From positions 1 through 26,392 of the IMG/VR virus record IMGVR_UViG_3300045988_023824: 26,392 bases of DNA; one strand, 5' to 3'. Numbering within the stretch: position 1 is the first letter of the stretch; each line of letters opens with the position of its first letter. The position numbers and the translations under genes were made by a program. The notes under the pieces are model-generated. The model worked only from the letters and a program-made list of their open reading frames with translations, ran no database searches and was not told the DNA's origin. The stretch is from a virus. This document shows, in pieces, positions 10,029 through 26,373 of the stretch.

Positions 10029-10640
10029 ATGAGTAAATTCACAAAAATTAAACTTGAGTTAGCTAAGATGCTTGCAAAGTTCAGTGATGTTAAAACTGAC
10101 AAGGCTGTGCTTACTTGGGATTCAGATGAGGATCTGAGAGAAGGTATGGATGTTTATGTAGCTGATGAAAATGGCGAATATGCACCTGCTGCTGATGGTG
10201 AGTATGTTACCGAAGATGGCAAAACGATTGTTGTTAAAGACGGTAAAGTAGAGTCCATTACTGATCCTAAAGCTGAAGTAGATCCAGAAGAAGCAGCTAA
10301 AGCAGAAGTTGATGCTGCTTGTGGGAAACGCAAGGTAGAAACTGCTGAAGAGCCAGTTGATCCTGAAGTAGCTACTGATGGTGACAAAGAAACTGTAACT
10401 GATGCAATTGATGCAATTCATCGCGAAATTAATGAGCTTTATGACATTGTTGATAAGCTTGTTAAGAAAGTAGCTGAATTAGAGGGTAAATCTGAAGCTA
10501 CAGAAAAGACGGTTGAAAAGATGAGCAAAATGAGTGCTGCATTTTCAGCTGAGGAACAGATAGAAGGCAAAGCTTCAATAATGACTGGTAATCCTGTCAT
10601 TGATAAAAAGCTTAAAAATATCCAAGGAATGTTTGAGTAA
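10029..10640 (+). CDS. Putative scaffolding protein, 203 aa, acidic coiled coil
   Basis: Intact ORF, highly acidic (D/E-rich), with predicted helical ends. Lies between the protease-like and capsid-like genes. Confidence 0.5.
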   Translation: MSKFTKIKLELAKMLAKFSDVKTDKAVLTWDSDEDLREGMDVYVADENGEYAPAADGEYVTEDGKTIVVKDGKVESITDPKAEVDPEEAAKAEVDAACGKRKVETAEEPVDPEVATDGDKETVTDAIDAIHREINELYDIVDKLVKKVAELEGKSEATEKTVEKMSKMSAAFSAEEQIEGKASIMTGNPVIDKKLKNIQGMFE

Positions 10641-11278
10641 TGTACCATTATATTTATGAAATTCAGCCTTTAATGCCTGGATGGGAAAACACTTACTATA
10701 TAGGCAAGCATAGTACTGATGAAGATCCATTTAATAATAGCTATGCAGGAAGTGGCACTATTCTTACTAATTACTATAGTAAATATGGCAAGATTAAAGA
10801 TGTTACTTACAGAAAAGTTATAATTGAATTTAATGATTCTTCAAAAGATAATGCTTTAAGAGAAGCTGATATTATAGGCGATTGTTATAACACCGATAAG
10901 AGATGTTTAAATCTTAAACCAGGAGGTTATGGAGGAATGACTCCAGAAATAGCTATTAAAATATCAGAATCTTGCAAAGGTCGTAATCCCTGAAATAAAC
11001 ACAAAACGGGAGTATATAATGCTGAAACTACAGAAAGACTTAAAAATATAGCTATAAATAGAGAGTTTACTTCAGAGACAAGAAAAAAGATGTCTGAATC
11101 TCATATAAATAAAGGTATAAAATCAATCATTATGCTAGATTTAGAAGGAAATATAATTAAAACTTATCCTTCAATTAAAAATGCTGTTTTAGATGGATAC
11201 TGTAAAAGCTCTATTCTTAGAGTATTAAACGGAAAATATAAACAGCATAAAGGTAAAATATTTAAGTATAACAATTAA
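10640..11278 (+). CDS. GIY-YIG homing endonuclease, 212 aa (1 in-frame TGA)
   Basis: Track ORFs 10640-10993 and 11090-11278 are co-phased, the gap has no TAA/TAG, and TGA is at 10991. HYIYEI...YYIGK (GIY...YIG), CLNLKPGGYGG, NUMOD3-like SETRKKMSESH, and a C-terminal DNA-binding tail ending KGKIFKYNN. Start overlaps the scaffold stop (TAATG). Confidence 0.8.
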
Positions 11279-11292
11279 AAAAATTTTTAAGT

Positions 11293-12195
11293 ATGGCAAA
11301 CCCCGTAATGACGAGTTTAACTAGTTACGTAGAACAGCGCAGGCTTCCATTGATAAAAGAGGCTGTATTAAAGGCTAAGAGTGCTTCGTTGTTCAATCTT
11401 CAAACTGACATCAAAACTAGTGCTGCTCTTAACCTGTTATCAACTGCTATTCAGTTTGGCGATGGCCTAGCTTGTGGTTGGGATGAAGCTGGAACTCAGA
11501 CTCTTTCTCAGAGAATTCTGACTACTGGTAATATTAAGATCAATATGGCATATTGTGATAAAGAGATGCTTAAATACTGGACTCAGTATCAAGTACGAGT
11601 AGCTGCTGGTCAGAAGACGCTTCCTTTTGAAGAGGATTTCGTAAATGCAGTAGTTGAGAACGTTAAGGCTGCTATCGAGACTGCTATTTGGCAGGGTGAT
11701 ACTACTTCTCAGACTAATAACCTGAAGTACTTTGATGGTCTGTTAAAGATCTTAAAAAATGCTGCTGGTACTGTTGATGTAACGATTACTGGTACTTCTG
11801 CTTATGATGACATTATGGCTGTTTATAACGCTATTCCTGAGAAGGTTCTGGATGGTGCTTCTATCTTAGTTGGTAGTGATACTTTCCGTAAATTTATCCA
11901 GGAGTTAGTTGCTAAGAACTACTACCATTATAGTGGTGAGAATCTTAATGGTGAGATTATGCTTCCTGGTTCGCAGGTTAAAGTAATCGCTGTTAATGGT
12001 CTTAATGGAACTGATAAGATTGTTGCTGGTCAGTTAGATAAGAACTTCTTCTATGGTTGCGATATGATGAACGATGAGGAGAAGTTTGAATTGTGGTATT
12101 CACAAGATTTCCGCGAATTTAGATTAGCTATTGAATTTAACGCTGGCGTACAGGTTGCATTCCCTGATGAGGTAGTTCTTGGTGCCAAAGCCTAA
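11293..12195 (+). CDS. Putative major capsid protein, 300 aa
   Basis: Intact ORF in the protease-scaffold-capsid position. Codon usage is visibly different and more G+C-rich (ggt/gct/cgt/cag), as expected for an abundant protein. Four TGG, no TGA. Confidence 0.6.
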   Translation: MANPVMTSLTSYVEQRRLPLIKEAVLKAKSASLFNLQTDIKTSAALNLLSTAIQFGDGLACGWDEAGTQTLSQRILTTGNIKINMAYCDKEMLKYWTQYQVRVAAGQKTLPFEEDFVNAVVENVKAAIETAIWQGDTTSQTNNLKYFDGLLKILKNAAGTVDVTITGTSAYDDIMAVYNAIPEKVLDGASILVGSDTFRKFIQELVAKNYYHYSGENLNGEIMLPGSQVKVIAVNGLNGTDKIVAGQLDKNFFYGCDMMNDEEKFELWYSQDFREFRLAIEFNAGVQVAFPDEVVLGAKA

Positions 12196-12233
12196 TTTCA
12201 ATAGAGTTTAACTTTAAATAAGATTGAAATTAT

Positions 12234-12758
12234 ATGGCTTGTTTAATAACTATCGCTGGTATTACCCTGGATTGCGAATCTTCGCTTGGTGGTATCAAAC
12301 AGGTATGGATTACTCAGTACGATAATGTTAAGAGTGTAACTGTAGATGATGAGACTAATCAAATCTCAGCTATTACTCTTGAAGAAGATGCTAAATGGTA
12401 TAATTACCAATTCCGCAAAGGTACTGGTTCTCTAACCTCAACATTGAACGTTGACGAAACTGCAGGAACCAACTATGTAAGTAATGAGCTTGCTCTTGTA
12501 TTTACAAAGATGGAGACTAAGAAAAGAATCGAGATTGCTGCTCTTTCTATTGGACAACTTGTAGTTGTTGTAGAAGATTCTAATGGCAAATACTGGTTCT
12601 TAGGAAAAGATGACTATGTAAGCGCTTCCGCTGGTACGGGTGTTACTGGTACTGCAAAAGGTGATCAGAACGCTTATACGCTGACTTTAGCTACTGACTC
12701 TGAATCATATCCTTATGAGTTGAGTGCAGAAGCTATCCAAAGCGTTGTAGGTGCTTAA
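12234..12758 (+). CDS. Abundant virion protein of unknown role, 174 aa (candidate tube/major tail or capsid-associated protein)
   Basis: Intact ORF with the same high-expression-like codon usage as the capsid gene, followed by a strong terminator. Three TGG, no TGA. Confidence 0.4.
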   Translation: MACLITIAGITLDCESSLGGIKQVWITQYDNVKSVTVDDETNQISAITLEEDAKWYNYQFRKGTGSLTSTLNVDETAGTNYVSNELALVFTKMETKKRIEIAALSIGQLVVVVEDSNGKYWFLGKDDYVSASAGTGVTGTAKGDQNAYTLTLATDSESYPYELSAEAIQSVVGA

Positions 12759-12770
12759 TAACAGAAAGAG

Positions 12771-12801
12771 GGGCGAGTATTAATTTACTTGCCCTTATTT
12801 T
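12771..12801 (+). terminator. Intrinsic terminator after the capsid block
   Basis: GGGCGAGTA (12771-12779) pairs with TACTTGCCC (12786-12794) with one G-U; loop TTAATT; followed by TTATTTTG. Confidence 0.65.
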
Positions 12802-16528: not shown

Positions 16529-17203
16529 ATGATTATATTAAAGAATACTAAGAATACTCAGACCTTCTATGTTAGTAAGAAATGCGGTATTGAGACAGCT
16601 CAGCTTCCTGTTGGTTCTTATACAAAGATTGAAGCAGATGCGAGATTTCAACCTAAAGGTAATTACATTTCCGAAGATAAGGCTGTTGAAATAATTGATG
16701 AGCAAATTAATTCTCAGTTGGATGTTATACTTGAACCTAAGTTAGAGCCAATTAAGAATGATATTACTGAATTAGAAACATCTAAGATGGAAGTATTTCA
16801 AGTAAACTCTCCTATGTCATTTAATAGAGAGGGTGAAGATTTACATCTATCTATTGATCTTTCTAACTATGCTCTCAAGTCAGATATTCCAAGTACTGAG
16901 GATTTTGCTACTAAAGAAGAGCTTGCATCTGTTGAAAATGAAGTTGGAAATAATTCTTCTAAGATTACAGCTATTGAAAGCAAGCAAGAAGAGGATGAAC
17001 TAAAGATTGATGCATTAGATAAGGAAGTTGGGACATTAGATGCAAATAAAGCAGACAAATCGGAACTATCTAATTATGTAACATTAGAAGTATATAATGC
17101 TAAGGTTTCAGAATTAGAAGCTGCTATTCAAGCTTTACAGGCACAAATCGGAACTATCTCAACTACTCTTGATACAATTAATGGTGAAATTCCAAATGAA
17201 TAG
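16529..17203 (+). CDS. 224-aa coiled-coil tail-fibre protein
   Basis: Track ORF 16502-17203. I prefer ATG 16529 because it does not overlap the upstream stop at 16519-16521. [19 protein letters not shown] is paralogous to IKTKQEEDGDKIDSLDKEM in 12848-15370. Ends in TAG. Confidence 0.6.
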
Positions 17204-17717
17204 AGTATTAACAAATTATCCTAACTATAGTGTATCTTCTACAGGAGATGTATATAGTAACCCATTGACTTTTAAAGATTCTATTGGAAGAACCAGAAAA
17301 CAAATACATAAAAAGCTAAAACAGCATATAGATAAATATGGCTATAATTATGTAATTCTAGTATCTGGCTTAGATAAACCTAAAGCTATTAAAGTTCACA
17401 GACTAGTAGCAGAAGCATTTATTCCAAATCCTGACAATCTACCATATGTTAACCATATAAATGAAAATAAGACAGATAATAGGGTAGAAAATTTAGAATG
17501 ATGTGATGCAAAGTATAATAATACATATGGAACTAGAATAAATAGATGTATTGATAAAATTAGTAAACCTGTAGGGCTATTTATTAATGATTTACTAGTT
17601 AAAACATATAAAAATGCAATTGAAACATCAATAGATGGGTATACTCATAGTAGAGTTATAGATTGTCTTAAAGGAAGAACAGACACTTATAAAGGGGTAA
17701 AATTTAAATATATCTAA
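17196..17717 (+). CDS. HNH homing endonuclease (NUMOD4-like N-terminus plus HNH_3-type core), 173 aa (1 in-frame TGA)
   Basis: ATG 17196 overlaps the fibre stop (ATGAATAG). [14 protein letters not shown], then [35 protein letters not shown] followed by TGA 17499 at the conserved W of NLEW. Continues 72 codons to TAA 17715-17717, ending KGVKFKYI. Confidence 0.85.
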
Positions 17718-21010: not shown

Positions 21011-21436
21011 ATGACCTACTATGAGATAATTAGCAATTTAAAAGCTTGTGCATTAGAAGAGCCAAACATCAATTTTGTAGGAAGTAAAGACATTTATGAG
21101 TTAAATAGCTTACCAACTATTGAGTATAATGTGTTCTATATAACACCTAATACTTTTAGTGTAGATGAAGATACTATTACTTACTCTTTAAACCTATACT
21201 TCGTATCAAGATGGGATGAGACTGATAACAACCAATTGGAGGAACAGTCAGCAGGTATGCTTGCACTGCAAAATATAATTAATCGTTTTAATAACCTATA
21301 TCCAGAAGTTGAAATAGCTTATCCTTTAATTTATACTCCATTCTATCAAAAGTTCAAAGATATTACCTGTGGAGTGTTTGTTAGAGCTGATTTCCAAGTT
21401 GACAACACATTAGGCTTATGTCAAGACAGTATGTAG
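21011..21436 (+). CDS. Hypothetical neck/head-completion protein, 141 aa
   Basis: Intact ORF ending in TAG. The functional guess rests on position only. Confidence 0.3.
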   Translation: MTYYEIISNLKACALEEPNINFVGSKDIYELNSLPTIEYNVFYITPNTFSVDEDTITYSLNLYFVSRWDETDNNQLEEQSAGMLALQNIINRFNNLYPEVEIAYPLIYTPFYQKFKDITCGVFVRADFQVDNTLGLCQDSM

Positions 21437-22002
21437 TTTATATTCATACTTTTCCAAATGGTAAAAGATATGTTGGATTAACCACTCAGTCAGTAAATAG
21501 TAGATGAAGAGGTGGAGAAGGATATAAAGATCAATTTGTTTACAGACCAATTAAAAAGTACGGTTGAAACAATATTAAACATACTATTTATTATGTAAAT
21601 AGTGAATCGGAAATGAAATATCTTGAAAAATACTTCTTTAGCTATTATAATACTACAGATTTAAGATTTGGTTATAATAGAACTGACACAAGTAATCATC
21701 CTATAGTTTCTAATGAAACTAAAGTTATTATTTCTGAATTTGCTAAAACTAGAATAGGAAATAAAAATCCATTTTATGGGAAGCATCATTCAGAAGAAAC
21801 TAAGGAATTAATACGCAAGAAAAATCAAAACTATGGAACTAAAGCTATTAGTCAATACACTTTAGATGGAAGATTTATAAAATCTTATAAAAGTATAAGA
21901 TCAGCAGCAAGAGAGTTAAACATAACTTCTTCTTTAATATCTTCAGTTTTAAGTGGCAGACAAAAACAAACTAAAGGATATACCTTTAAGTATAATATGT
22001 AA
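21418..22002 (+). CDS. GIY-YIG homing endonuclease, 194 aa (2 in-frame TGA)
   Basis: ATG 21418 overlaps the upstream gene by 19 nt. MSRQYVVYIHTFPNGKRYVGLTTQSVNSRWRGGEGY...KKYGWNNIKH, with TGA at 21505 and 21565. Co-phased with track ORF 21613-22002, which carries NUMOD3-like GKHHSEETKELIRKKN and the tail TKGYTFKYNM. Confidence 0.85.
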
Positions 22003-22658
22003 TGGAAAATAAATTAAATTGGTTTGGTAAAGTATTAGAATGGGTTGATAAATATGGATTACTAAAGATATTTAAAGCAGGGATTGGATTAATATTTATA
22101 TCCTATGTAATGGTTATTACACTTAATCCCTCTATTGTTTATAATAAGGTTGTAACCTATATTGAACAAACTCACAATTCTAAAACTATTGCAAGAAATG
22201 AAGCAACTTTAAAGATTAAATATAAGCTTAAAGAATTGCTTCAAAGCACAAATGCTGATAGAGCTTGGGTTATTGAATATCATAATGGAACTACTGGATT
22301 AGGAGGACTTCCATTTACCTATGGAGTAATGAATGCAGAGGAAGTAAAACCAGGAATAAGACCTGTAAGTAGCCATTATAAAGACTTCCTCTTATCTGAC
22401 TATACTTCAATTATAGAGTTTTCTAAGAATGATGGATGGTTTGGTAATATAGATAGTTTAGAAGCAGATGATCCAAGATTATATTATGCATTTAAATCCA
22501 ACAGAGTGAATGAAATAGCAGTATTTTATTTAAAGACTGAGGATAAAGATATTGGCATTTTAGGTTTGTCATTCTGTGATACACCTATGCCTTATGATAC
22601 TTGAGTACATCTAAGAAGAGCTGGAATACAGATAAGTATAATTTTAAATAAAATATAA
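22002..22658 (+). CDS. 218-aa N-terminally membrane-anchored protein of unknown function, first gene of the lysis cassette (1 in-frame TGA)
   Basis: Start overlaps the previous stop (TAATG). TM segment GLLKIFKAGIGLIFISYVMVITL. TGA 22602 extends the protein by 18 codons to TAA 22656-22658, one nt before the holin-like ATG. Confidence 0.45.
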
Positions 22659-22659
22659 T

Positions 22660-22818
22660 ATGAAATATTGGTTAAAATATGTAATAGTAGTTGTACTATT
22701 AATGATTGCATTTTTGTTAATTAAAGTAATTCCTTTTTGGATTACTATTAGTTTAACGTTATTTGGAGCAGTGTGCTATTTTATTTACCTTTATAAACTG
22801 CATAATTCATATAAATAA
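22660..22818 (+). CDS. Holin-like small membrane protein, 52 aa, two predicted TM helices
   Basis: MKYWLKYVIVVVLLMIAFLLIKVIPFWITISLTLFGAVCYFIYLYKLHNSYK. Below the track's size cut-off. Its stop overlaps the endolysin start (TAATG). Confidence 0.6.
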   Translation: MKYWLKYVIVVVLLMIAFLLIKVIPFWITISLTLFGAVCYFIYLYKLHNSYK

Positions 22819-23270
22819 TGAAGTATTTCACACTCGAAGAATTAACAAGATCTGATACTGCTTCAATTAAGCATATAGATAACACTCCAGATGAGAGTAT
22901 AACAGAGCACCTGATAGAGTTGGTCGAGAAGCTTTTAGACCCAATAAGAGAGAGATGGGCAAAGTATTGTGATGACAATCAGCTTGGCAATGCAGGCATC
23001 AGGATTTCCTCTGGTTTTAGAAATAAGGAGCTTAATAAAGCAGTAGGAGGATCTTCAACTTCTGCTCATTTAACAGGGTATGCAGCAGATATATCTCCAA
23101 TTAATGGTAATATGAAAGTATTCCAAAGTTGGATTGCTGAAGCTATTGAAGAATTAAATTGAGACCAGTTGATATATGAAAAGCCTAAGAATGGTATAGC
23201 AAGTTGAATACACTTGGGATTAAAGAATAAAGACGGGATGCAAAGACGACAGAAATTTACTATTATATAA
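22818..23270 (+). CDS. Endolysin, zinc peptidase M15 (VanY / L-Ala-D-Glu peptidase type), 150 aa (2 in-frame TGA)
   Basis: FTLEELTRSDTA...IDNTP, then SSGFRNKELNKAVGGSSTSAHLTGYAADI (H-x6-D). TGA 23160 and 23205 are followed by WIHLG (third His). TAA 23268-23270. Confidence 0.85.
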
Positions 23271-23839
23271 TGTTTTACTATTGTTATAAAATAATTTTAA
23301 CTGCAGGTACATTAAGAGGCAAGTATTATATTGGGAAAAGGATTTATAGAGGTAAAGACATAAATAAAGATCCATATAAAGGATCAGGAAGGATTATTAC
23401 TAATTATTACAAAAGATTCCCTAATGCATACCAAAAGATTATTTTGGCAACTTGCACTAATGCAGATGAATTATCTAAATTAGAATACAAACTAATTGGA
23501 GATAAATGGGACACTGATCCTATGTGTTTAAATTTGAAACCTGGAGGAGAAGGAGGCAATTACGGAGTCAAATTTAATTCTGAATGAAAGAAGAAACTGT
23601 CTAATTCTAATAAGGGAAAGAAACATAATTGCCCAGAATCTTGAAGAGATAAAGTAGATGCTCATAACAAACAAAGATGTCGTAAAGTAGCTCAGTATGA
23701 TTTAGATGGTAATTTTATTCAAGAGTATGAAAGTTGCACAGAAGCAGCCAAATCTGTAGGAACTGATAGAGGAGCTATTAGTAGAGTATGTGGTGGATTA
23801 GCAAATACAGCTAAAGGATTCAAGTGAAGATATGTTTAA
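23270..23839 (+). CDS. GIY-YIG homing endonuclease, 189 aa (3 in-frame TGA), paralogue of 10640-11278
   Basis: YCYKI...YYIGK, YKGSGRIITNYY and CLNLKPGGEGG are shared with 10640-11278. TGA at 23585,23642,23825. C-terminal tail AKGFKWRYV. Start overlaps the endolysin stop (TAATG). Confidence 0.8.
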
Positions 23840-23847
23840 TAAAAAAG

Positions 23848-23874
23848 AAAAGGAGGGCAAATAACCCTCCTTTT
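23848..23874. terminator. Bidirectional intrinsic terminator between the convergent gene blocks
   Basis: 10-bp stem AAAAGGAGGG / CCCTCCTTTT with loop CAAATAA. The A-tract on one side and T-tract on the other give a U-run on either strand. Confidence 0.75.
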
Positions 23875-23877
23875 TGT

Positions 23878-24156: not shown

Positions 24157-24318
24157 TTAATCAAATTTAGAAATAAACATATAATCTTTATCTTTTAATA
24201 CTTTATCTATAATATCACCAAATCTTTTAGTAGCCTCTTTACATTCGAGCATTCATTTATCCAATTCTTTAATATACTCTTCTGTTTGTTTAATTGTTTC
24301 TTTAATATCACTTTCCAT
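24157..24318 (-). CDS. Small hypothetical protein: 53 aa if TGA 24253-24255 is read as Trp, otherwise two mini-ORFs of 21 and 31 aa
   Basis: MESDIKETIKQTEEYIKELDK-TGA-MLECKEATKRFGDIIDKVLKDKDYMFISKFD. The TGA is followed directly by an ATG, so both readings are possible. Confidence 0.3.
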
Positions 24319-24389: not shown

Positions 24390-26108
24390 CTAATTTTTAA
24401 AGACATACTTTTTACCTATAATAGTATATCCATAAGATCTGTTTCCATTCACTGATTTTTTAGTTACCTTAACTTCATAATATTTTGTAATATCAGTAGC
24501 TTTAGCATTAGTTTTATTAACTAAATCATAAGCTTTTTGTAGTATCTTTTTAATATCAGTATTAGAATACCACATACCTAAAGTTATATCTTTATTAAGT
24601 TTATTTGCTACTTTATTATCTACAGATTTATCTGAAGTTTTAATAAGTTCATCTTTTATTTTAGTAATACAGTATTTTAGAGTGGCCATTTTATTGAATC
24701 CAAGTTTAGTAATAGCATCCATTAACCAAGGGTATTTAATAAGAGCATCATCTAATTTTGGGGTGTTTACCTTATATAAGGTTTCATATTCCTCTCTTAC
24801 TTCTTTAATTATATCTTTAAATGCTTTTGTTTTAGTATTTAGATCTATTTTTATAGAATTATCATATTGTTCTACTACTTTATTAAATCCTTTATTAATA
24901 TATTCATTAGAAAGATTAGCTCTAGCAGAATACAGTCCTCTGGATACTTTAAAATTAAATAAATCGATCTTAGCCATATTAGGGTCAAATTCAAATACAT
25001 CATCCCAATTTAATTTAATGTATGCATCAGAAGTAAATTCTCTAAGTTTCTTTTTAGCTATCTCTGGAAGTTTATTGTATGCTTCTACAGCAATTTTAGT
25101 TTCTTCAATATTCTGGATATTAAGCTTTTTAAATTCTTCATAAGATATATCAGCATATCTTGTTGTAGAATAAATGTGAGTTATCCAATTAATATATTTA
25201 CTATTTCTAATTCTACCAGCAATCTGCTGTATAGAAGTTGATATATCAAGTAATGTATTAGCTTTACTTGGATCAGATATAATTATTATCCTTCCATTTT
25301 CATCATAAATATCAGAACCTTCAAATACAGTTGAAGTTAATAAGTTTATTTTCTTAGGTTCATCTAAGACTGTTGAATTAGGAATTGACAGTTTAGTTTT
25401 ATTGTTTTTGGAATATATAACTCTGGTATTATTAGATGTTAATTTGGCTTTCTTAATAAGGTTCTTTATAAAGTCTACTGAATTAACGAATATGTAGGCG
25501 TTACCTTCAACCTGTCCGTTTAAAAATCCATTTATAAGTTTAATAGTAGAAGCTTCTACATTATCGCATTTAACAGTTTGTACTTTTACATCTATAACAT
25601 CATCCCATTCCTGCTTTACTAATTCTAAATCTTTTAATTCATCTAATACAAACTCTTCCTCTAAAGGTGTTGCGGTCATAAATGTAAAATTACCAAATAA
25701 TTTATAATATTTAAGCACTGATTGAATAGCAGAGCTTCTAAAGCTATACTGATTAAAGAGAATATGATATTCATCAATTAAAATGCTAAACTCTTTAGGA
25801 TTAATTGCAGAAATAACTTTATAAAGAGAATCATATGTAACAATAATTTTAGGACATTTAACACTATCTACGTAATCTTTAATCTCTTTAATAGTAACTC
25901 CAGCATAAACTCCAAATATCTTCTCAGTACGTCTTTCATTTGGATATTGTTGAAGTTTATTTTCAACTAAGCTAGTAAATGGAACACAAATAACATAAGG
26001 CTTATTACATTCAATTGCCATTGAAGTTCCTCCACATCCAACTTTTCCTTTATCAAATAAACAGTTAGTTGGCAACTCATTAATCAAATTGTTTAAATAT
26101 GTTTTCAT
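24390..26108 (-). CDS. SF2 DExH-box helicase-like protein, 572 aa
   Basis: Intact standard-code ORF ending in TAG. Motif I-like GKVGCGGTS, motif II LIDEYH, motif III MTATP, motif VI QQIAGRIRN. Five TGG, no TGA. Confidence 0.7.
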   Translation of the reverse strand: MKTYLNNLINELPTNCLFDKGKVGCGGTSMAIECNKPYVICVPFTSLVENKLQQYPNERRTEKIFGVYAGVTIKEIKDYVDSVKCPKIIVTYDSLYKVISAINPKEFSILIDEYHILFNQYSFRSSAIQSVLKYYKLFGNFTFMTATPLEEEFVLDELKDLELVKQEWDDVIDVKVQTVKCDNVEASTIKLINGFLNGQVEGNAYIFVNSVDFIKNLIKKAKLTSNNTRVIYSKNNKTKLSIPNSTVLDEPKKINLLTSTVFEGSDIYDENGRIIIISDPSKANTLLDISTSIQQIAGRIRNSKYINWITHIYSTTRYADISYEEFKKLNIQNIEETKIAVEAYNKLPEIAKKKLREFTSDAYIKLNWDDVFEFDPNMAKIDLFNFKVSRGLYSARANLSNEYINKGFNKVVEQYDNSIKIDLNTKTKAFKDIIKEVREEYETLYKVNTPKLDDALIKYPWLMDAITKLGFNKMATLKYCITKIKDELIKTSDKSVDNKVANKLNKDITLGMWYSNTDIKKILQKAYDLVNKTNAKATDITKYYEVKVTKKSVNGNRSYGYTIIGKKYVFKN

Positions 26109-26204: not shown

Positions 26205-26223
26205 GGCAGGACTTTCACCTGCC
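26205..26223 (-). terminator. GC-rich hairpin that reads as an intrinsic terminator or attenuator on the minus strand
   Basis: GGCAGG / CCTGCC stem with a 7-nt loop. On the minus strand it is followed by ACTTTTTGAATC; on the plus strand no U-run follows directly. Confidence 0.45.
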
Positions 26224-26251
26224 TAGAATTATTAGTTTTAGTTTCATACTG

Positions 26252-26283
26252 CAAATATAATACATAAAAATTAAATTTCCAAA
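26252..26283 (-). promoter_or_regulatory. Bacteroidota-type promoter P1 (minus strand): -33 TTTG, 20-nt spacer, -7 TATATTTG
   Basis: Plus strand shows CAAATATA at 26252-26259 and CAAA at 26280-26283. The reverse complement is TTTG-N20-TATATTTG, an exact match to TAnnTTTG. Confidence 0.6.
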
Positions 26284-26341
26284 TAATTTAGCAATTATTT
26301 TTAATAAATTTTCATTTTTATTATTTCTTATTTTGATAGTA

Positions 26342-26373
26342 CAAATATACAACATTATTTTTAAATTTCCAAA
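26342..26373 (-). promoter_or_regulatory. Bacteroidota-type promoter P2 (minus strand), a tandem copy exactly 90 bp upstream of P1
   Basis: CAAATATA at 26342-26349 and CAAA at 26370-26373, with the same 20-nt spacing. 26336-26379 matches 26246-26289 at 36 of 44 positions, with the mismatches concentrated in the spacer. Confidence 0.6.

Follow-up and report, generated by a model that had tools for sequence, protein, structure and literature searches.

Organization of the lysis region

A holin-like open reading frame (ORF) and an endolysin gene lie directly downstream of a gene for a 218-amino-acid protein, and constitute the last cellular-type genes of a plus-strand unit that ends at a two-way terminator-like hairpin (Table 1). 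The start of the endolysin gene overlaps the end of the holin-like ORF by one base (TAATG). The window, by which we mean the whole analysed stretch of 26,392 nucleotides (IMG/VR record IMGVR_UViG_3300045988_023824), covers most of a phage genome of about 31 kb and maps circularly onto complete contigs of 30.2-30.9 kb, leaving about 5.8 kb of the genome outside it. The window genes encode tail proteins, an S78-type protease, the capsid and portal proteins, several free-standing homing endonucleases and the lysis proteins; the terminase gene falls within the missing 5.8 kb and was seen only in the complete relatives. Searching with 25 kb by megablast and with the capsid protein by tblastn retrieved no close relative among GenBank phages, and the comparisons below draw on more than 50 related contigs from IMG/VR and human-gut assemblies.

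On the minus strand, we observed a helicase-like early gene whose product, in an AlphaFold2 model, matches DEAD-box and other SF2 helicases. Ahead of this gene, tandem promoters are followed by a terminator-like hairpin at 26223-26205 (26205-26373 in all, minus strand), an arrangement suggestive of attenuation or of a short leader transcript. The plus strand carries four free-standing genes for homing endonucleases (10640-11278, 17181-17717, 21418-22002 and 23270-23839), three of the GIY-YIG/NUMOD type and one of the HNH type, with TGA shares of 0.5-1.0; two of the four lie on either side of the lysis cassette. Their patchy occurrence, in just 2-7 distinct relative sequences each, makes it probable that these genes are mobile.

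Table 1 Features of the lysis region and of the genes compared with it. Positions are those of the window; zinc ligands and the protein strand 130-134 are predicted.
Feature	Position	Strand	Remarks
Protease gene	9429		TGA in 4 of 71 Trp codons across the clade
Gene at 10029	10029		TGA in 0 of 25 Trp codons across the clade
Capsid gene	11293	+	TGA in 1 of 200 Trp codons across the clade
Gene at 12234	12234	+	TGA in 2 of 114 Trp codons across the clade
218-aa protein	22002-22658	+	One N-terminal membrane segment; directly 5' of the holin-like ORF; TGA at 22602 (codon 201)
Holin-like ORF	22660-22818	+	52 aa; two hydrophobic segments, about residues 8-26 and 24-44
Endolysin gene	22818-23270	+	150 aa with TGA as Trp; ATG at 22818, TAA at 23268-23270
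SSGFR			Endolysin residues 64-68
SAHLTGYAADI			Endolysin residues 82-92
Hx6D motif, first two zinc ligands	23067-23090	+	H84 at 23067-23069; D91 at 23088-23090
TGA codon 115 of endolysin	23160-23162	+	In frame, as Trp
ASWIHLG			Endolysin residues 128-134; its W is the TGA at 23205
TGA codon 130 of endolysin	23205-23207	+	Trp of the WxH signature, two codons 5' of ligand H132
H132, third zinc ligand	23211-23213	+	On predicted strand 130-134; invariant column
Two-way terminator-like hairpin	23847-23875		Closes the plus-strand unit with the lysis genes and a converging minus-strand unit
SF2 helicase-like early gene	24390-26108	-	572 aa; TGA 0, TGG 5; TGA in 1 of 106 Trp codons across the clade
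Tandem Bacteroidota-type promoter elements (TTTG-N20-TAnnTTTG)	26252-26283, 26342-26373	-	Upstream of the helicase-like gene

TGA is a tryptophan codon throughout the phage

Thirty-five in-frame TGA codons are spread over 13 of the 25 window genes. All 25 genes stop at TAA or TAG and none at TGA, and treating TGA as a sense codon gives longer reading frames across the window. At the sites where the window carries an in-frame TGA, the relatives have TGA 469 times, TGG 169 times, a Tyr or Phe codon 29 times and a Gly codon once. Judged from these alignments, TGA is read as Trp (genetic code 4) genome-wide in this phage. Since TGA aligns with Trp and exchanges for it in relatives, where it swaps with TGG, a reading as Gly (code 25) was rejected, and selenocysteine was rejected on the same evidence. 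Context-dependent read-through of the sense TGAs was also considered and set aside: a purine follows 29 of the 35 sense TGAs, as against 41 of the 67 TGGs, a skew too weak to support it.

TGA makes up 35 of the 102 Trp codons in the window genes (34%), compared with 65-99% for the A-ending codons of other A/G pairs, and it therefore lies far below the mutation-bias expectation. Across the clade, the capsid gene, the genes at 10029 and 12234, the protease gene and the helicase-like gene contain very few TGAs or none (Table 1). In the window, the head genes and the helicase-like gene together have none among 15 Trp codons, against 35 of 87 elsewhere (p = 0.002, with the grouping chosen post hoc). 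Across the clade, many TGAs are found in the tail genes, the terminase gene, the homing endonuclease genes and several small genes near the control region. TGA avoidance thus follows the head genes and the SF2 helicase-like gene, and not the lysis genes. This distribution fits a codon that is usable but costly, and that has been eliminated from the proteins of highest abundance as well as from the first early gene.

Two further observations concern this distribution. A strong terminator-like hairpin at 12769-12796 lies behind the capsid gene and the gene at 12234-12758 (plus strand, 11293-12796 as a whole), and the near lack of TGA from both genes across the clade agrees with high expression of this unit. 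A minus-strand ORF of 53 amino acids (24157-24318), located downstream of the helicase-like gene, has TGA as its single Trp codon, with an ATG directly after it; TGA is likewise the only Trp codon in 15 of 15 distinct relative sequences, and the homologue in one complete relative (c097) has a promoter-like element of its own. The TGA in this ORF is hard to fit with the notion that early genes are TGA-free.

The endolysin is a predicted M15 zinc peptidase with a TGA codon in its catalytic signature

The endolysin matched Pfam family PF08291 (Peptidase_M15_3) with 52.4 bits against a curated cutoff of 23.2, and PHROG 894, annotated as 'endolysin', at 4e-29 over residues 1-145. Its full-length identity to endolysins of Moraxella, Achromobacter, Bacteroides and crAss-like phages is 40-46%. 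Two alignments, one of 19 and one of 42 sequences, show no variation at H84, D91, W130 or H132. The family matches and invariant motifs bear out the earlier assignment to the M15 peptidases, which had been made from the letters of the window by a sequence-only reading.

When PDB sequences were searched, the single-sequence and the profile query both matched the zinc D-Ala-D-Ala carboxypeptidase 1LBU over residues 45-93 only, with the H84/D91 region opposite SRHMYGHAAD. The third His cannot be placed from an alignment covering residues 45-93, and it was placed by way of the invariant columns, the motif known from the literature and the predicted fold. An AlphaFold2 model of an 86%-identical homologue, which has the same length and an identical C-terminal half, reached a pLDDT of 96.6 and has strands at residues 61-65, 89-94, 117-121, 130-134 and 145-149. 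Foldseek with this model returned 1LBU first (E = 1.3e-4); hedgehog N-terminal domains, VanY, LdcB and MepA came next with weaker scores (E = 0.03-2), and this set of matches points to the LAS fold. The characterised M15A endolysin of Burkholderia phage ST79 has the Hx6D and WxH motifs, with His/Asp/His ligands (PMC5025407). Taken by sequence and modelled fold, the gene product is predicted to be an M15A / Peptidase_M15_3 zinc peptidase of the LAS fold.

The sequence-only reading had proposed that the His and Asp ligands, within SSGFR and SAHLTGYAADI, precede the first TGA, while the third ligand follows both TGAs. The positions of the motifs were confirmed, and the homologues and the predicted fold uphold H84, D91 and H132 as the ligand triad, with H132 in an invariant column. 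Direct translation under the standard code ends after 114 codons. As had been suggested, this product lacks the third His; a stop at codon 115 would also remove three of the five predicted strands, and the 114-amino-acid fragment should therefore be inactive.

The two TGAs differ in their conservation. In 36 distinct endolysin sequences, codon 130 is TGA in 31 and TGG in 5, and codon 115 is TGA in 10, a Phe codon in 25 and a Tyr codon in one; in an alignment with homologues, the second TGA stands opposite an invariant Trp and the first opposite Phe. W47, which is as invariant as W130, is always TGG in the same 36 sequences, in counts that ignore kinship. The TGA at W130 is kept even in variants with a divergent C-terminus. 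Compared with four relatives (L065 and L075-L077), the endolysin gene is a mosaic, in which the N-terminal part is near-identical and the C-terminal third (about 23100-23270) occurs in at least three versions, which suggests recombination inside the gene.

A gene with two in-frame stop codons could also be a decaying pseudogene that has gathered nonsense mutations, and public gene calls do shorten the endolysin, to 127-129 amino acids. We give this reading practically no credence: the sequence 3' of the TGAs is conserved, with W130 and H132 invariant, in-frame TGA occurs in 13 genes, and relatives exchange TGA for TGG. The conservation data rule it out.

The lysis genes are not preferentially recoded

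As the sequence-only reading had noted, the holin-like ORF has two Trp codons, both TGG (22669 and 22738), and no TGA. We found no Pfam or PHROG family match for this ORF and call it holin-like only, by its size, its membrane segments and its place beside the endolysin gene. The 218-amino-acid protein encoded directly upstream had no Pfam match and may be a lysis accessory protein. Its gene carries TGA in 32 of 32 distinct relative sequences, where TGA accounts for 91 of 176 Trp codons. The endolysin itself has no N-terminal membrane or signal segment, and so should need a membrane protein to reach the wall.

In the window, TGA accounts for two of the four Trp codons of the endolysin gene and neither of the two in the holin-like ORF. 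Against the rest of the window, Fisher tests gave p = 0.61 for the endolysin gene and p = 0.54 for the holin-like ORF; at a TGA share of 34%, the chance of no TGA among two Trp codons is 0.43 and that of at least one among four is 0.81. The contrast between the two genes is thus no greater than chance within the window. Clade-wide, the TGA share is 0.39 in the endolysin gene and 0.33 overall, and neither these shares nor the window Fisher tests revealed preferential recoding of lysis genes.

Among the relatives, 34 of 37 distinct endolysin genes contain TGA at least once, and 20 of 21 distinct holin-like ORFs lack it, these 21 having one TGA in about 41 Trp codons, again in counts that ignore kinship. 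Exceptions were observed in both directions. One relative (L122) has a holin-like ORF with TGA at W27; in this relative and another (L123), TGG encodes W130 of the endolysin, and TGA is found at positions 105 and 115. A third (L125) has a TGA within the Hx6D motif, and a fourth (L124) has a TGA-free endolysin gene beside a neighbouring gene with an in-frame TGA. The arrangement of TGA over the holin-like ORF and endolysin gene is therefore not fixed among relatives. The retention of TGA at W130 and the near absence of TGA from the holin-like ORF could reflect selection and not shared ancestry.

No phage tRNA for TGA was detected, and the host is probably a Bacteroidota member

ARAGORN detected no tRNA, either in the window or in the related loci, of which more than 80 were scanned, some of them together covering complete genomes of about 31 kb, and Rfam gave no tRNA, with no tRNA-like match at E values up to 5. 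Among the proteins scanned with Pfam, none showed a domain of a release factor or of a tRNA synthetase. A hidden suppressor tRNA was sought with relaxed ARAGORN thresholds and the intron mode, which gave only scattered matches in coding sequence. The mitochondrial mode of ARAGORN called a 64-nt 'tRNA(UCA)' at 22373-22436 (plus strand), within the gene for the 218-amino-acid protein, which recurs at the homologous place in two relatives and is the only recurring call with a UCA anticodon; its T arm is missing, its A/T stems are weak, and calls of this kind number about eight per genome, so that we regard it as a false positive. Detectable suppressor tRNAs have been reported in 35% of code-4 phages (Borges et al., bioRxiv 10.1101/2021.08.26.457843) and in 15% (PMC11210395), and missing suppressor tRNAs in such phages are a known gap.

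Several features bear on the host. The source samples of the relatives are from the human gut, and the phage genes lack Shine-Dalgarno sequences. The two-part element TTTG-N20-TAnnTTTG, which we take to be the Bacteroides promoter consensus, has three matches in the window against 1.09 expected, two of which lie upstream of the helicase-like gene, and it recurs in both orientations in the control region of the complete relatives. The short motif TAnnTTTG by itself is not enriched in the window (37 found, 38.6 expected), and only the full two-part pattern is informative. A temperate sister phage (L119; Logan SRR15399167, a contig of 28.8 kb) uses the standard code, with no in-frame TGA, 30 TGG codons and four genes that stop at TGA; it shares the gene order of the present phage (portal, DUF6712, small ORFs, endolysin) and has in addition an integrase, for which all named matches are from Bacteroidota. 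A Hymenobacter chromosome encodes a homologue of the helicase-like protein at 46% identity, and relatives of the capsid protein occur on long Chitinophagaceae contigs. On these sequence affiliations, a standard-code host from the Bacteroidota is probable.

Two long assemblies contain related sequence. In the 33 kb that were read of a 148-kb IMG/VR contig (3300045988_175865; L019/L099), all genes were phage genes, and tail-fibre genes occur a second time upstream of one genome length. This contig therefore probably represents related strains joined into a concatemer during assembly, and not a prophage within a host. In the 20 kb that were read of a 193-kb ENA scaffold (L126), all genes were likewise phage genes.

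Discussion

Our analysis of the lysis region leads us to consider it likely that the gene encodes a complete, predicted functional endolysin of a circularly permuted human-gut phage of about 31 kb, in which both TGAs are ordinary Trp codons and do not act as a timer. The lysis genes would be expressed at the end of a plus-strand unit that appears to begin near 18.86 kb and to close with the terminator at 23.85 kb, and the TAATG overlap makes translational coupling of the holin-like ORF and the endolysin gene probable. The full-length enzyme is predicted to bind zinc through H84, D91 and H132, and would reach the wall only once the membrane has been opened. Where TGA is not decoded, a fragment of 114 amino acids missing three strands and H132 would be produced, and should be inactive. 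The same dependence on TGA would apply to about half of the genes, including those for tail proteins, homing endonucleases and the neighbouring membrane protein, and the terminase in the complete relatives. Virion assembly, too, depends on TGA decoding. As TGA decoding is needed by so many genes, lysis would require it and yet would not be specifically timed by it.

The sequence-only reading had gone further, and held that murein hydrolysis but not the membrane component is conditional on TGA, the holin being readable under the standard code, so that recoding would act as a switch that times or licenses lysis. The skew among the relatives, with TGA in nearly all endolysin genes and in a single holin-like ORF, agrees with such a switch, as does the persistence of TGA at W130 across divergent C-terminal variants; a homologue in a crAss-like phage has three in-frame TAGs, one of them directly before the first His ligand; and the idea that recoding regulates lytic genes has already been published (Borges et al., bioRxiv 10.1101/2021.08.26.457843). 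However, by chance alone 81% of endolysin genes with four Trp codons would carry TGA and 43% of ORFs with two would carry none, the relatives include exceptions in both directions, the neighbouring membrane protein has TGA in every relative sampled, no code-switch module was found in the complete genomes, and the head genes are TGA-free despite being late genes. In lysis by holin and endolysin, moreover, the holin is the clock, and the cytoplasmic enzyme accumulates harmlessly; a holin that fires without the enzyme kills the cell and does not release the phage. A gate on the enzyme alone would therefore not determine when the cell lyses. We therefore regard this extension of the sequence-only reading as quite improbable.

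How TGA is decoded is a related matter. We favour, as a moderately probable account, a standard-code host in which decoding proceeds by a route other than a detected phage tRNA. The host might instead be a code-4 bacterium that natively reads TGA as Trp, in which case nothing would be gated. This agrees with the lack of a tRNA in any complete genome, with TGA never serving as a stop, with the presence of TGA in genes directly behind host-type promoters (the minus-strand ORF at 24157-24318 and small early-region genes in relatives), and with the report that most GenBank (INPHARED) phages for which table 4 is predicted infect Mycoplasma or Spiroplasma, which use code 4 (PMC11210395). The phage, however, retains a conserved peptidoglycan peptidase, in contrast to what wall-less Mollicutes would call for; its promoters are of the Bacteroidota type; the named homologues of the integrase and the helicase-like protein are all from Bacteroidota; the sister phage uses the standard code with TGA stops; and TGA is strongly under-used for a genome of 30% G+C and almost absent from the head genes. 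To our knowledge, the known code-4 bacteria, insect endosymbionts aside, are wall-less Mollicutes. A native code-4 host is thus unlikely, although it retains some weight. Beyond the favoured account of a standard-code host lies a more elaborate proposal that we find doubtful, namely that the clade infects standard-code gut Bacteroidota and achieves UGA-to-Trp decoding without a phage suppressor tRNA, with TGA gating low-copy or dangerous proteins and the TGA of the WxH signature serving as a selected fail-safe. The gated proteins may then be the endolysin, the homing endonucleases, the tail fibres and the terminase, and the decoding route may be a protein that disables release factor 2, a decoder supplied by the host or a co-resident element, or a non-canonical RNA.

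The phage resembles the Agate/Jade code-4 gut phages in its low G+C content, its in-frame TGA read as Trp and its probable standard-code host, and also in having TGA in tail, lysis and homing endonuclease genes, a TGA-free replication gene and close standard-code relatives. Recoded lysis genes, recoded homing endonucleases, TGA-free replication genes and close standard-code relatives were already noted by Borges et al. (10.1101/2021.08.26.457843), and the present phage shares its lack of a detectable suppressor tRNA with about 65% of the code-4 phages surveyed there. By contrast, its genome is about 31 kb, as against roughly 150-200 kb for phages of the Agate/Jade type, no module of suppressor tRNA, release factor or tRNA synthetase was found in it, its head genes are almost TGA-free and its lysis genes are not preferentially recoded. 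With the phages of wall-less code-4 hosts it has in common a genome-wide use of TGA as Trp that needs no phage tRNA, but it differs from them in encoding a peptidoglycan peptidase and carrying Bacteroidota-type promoters.

With respect to the enzyme, the ST79 endolysin (PF08291; PMC5025407) and the Streptomyces albus G enzyme 1LBU belong to the same Pfam family and share the Hx6D and WxH motifs, the His/Asp/His order and the LAS fold, a likeness that is drawn by sequence and predicted fold. The present phage differs from both in encoding the Trp of the WxH signature by TGA. Reassigned stops also interrupt the endolysin gene of a crAss-like phage, a group that reads TAG as Gln. The homologous M15 endolysin of crAss-like phage cr114_1 (NC_055897.1, 59723-60118; YP_010112963.1; 41% identity) contains the three in-frame TAGs mentioned above, and not TGA, including the one directly before the first zinc-ligand His.

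Public gene calls P0027, P0050 and P0364 cut the endolysin short at a TGA, under the names 'putative chitinase', 'YcbK (DUF882 family)' and 'peptidase', and recoding-aware gene calling is needed for genes of this kind. If the endolysin were indeed timed by TGA, it would provide a clean single-gene test of recoding-controlled lysis; the evidence instead presents it as one of many genes in a code in which TGA specifies Trp. What is new here is a small, abundant, tRNA-less clade of code-4 phages together with a recoded codon within a catalytic signature, and the interest of the locus would rise further only if the decoding route proves unusual. With complete genomes and no tRNA, the clade offers a convenient system for studying how code-4 phages get their TGA codons decoded.
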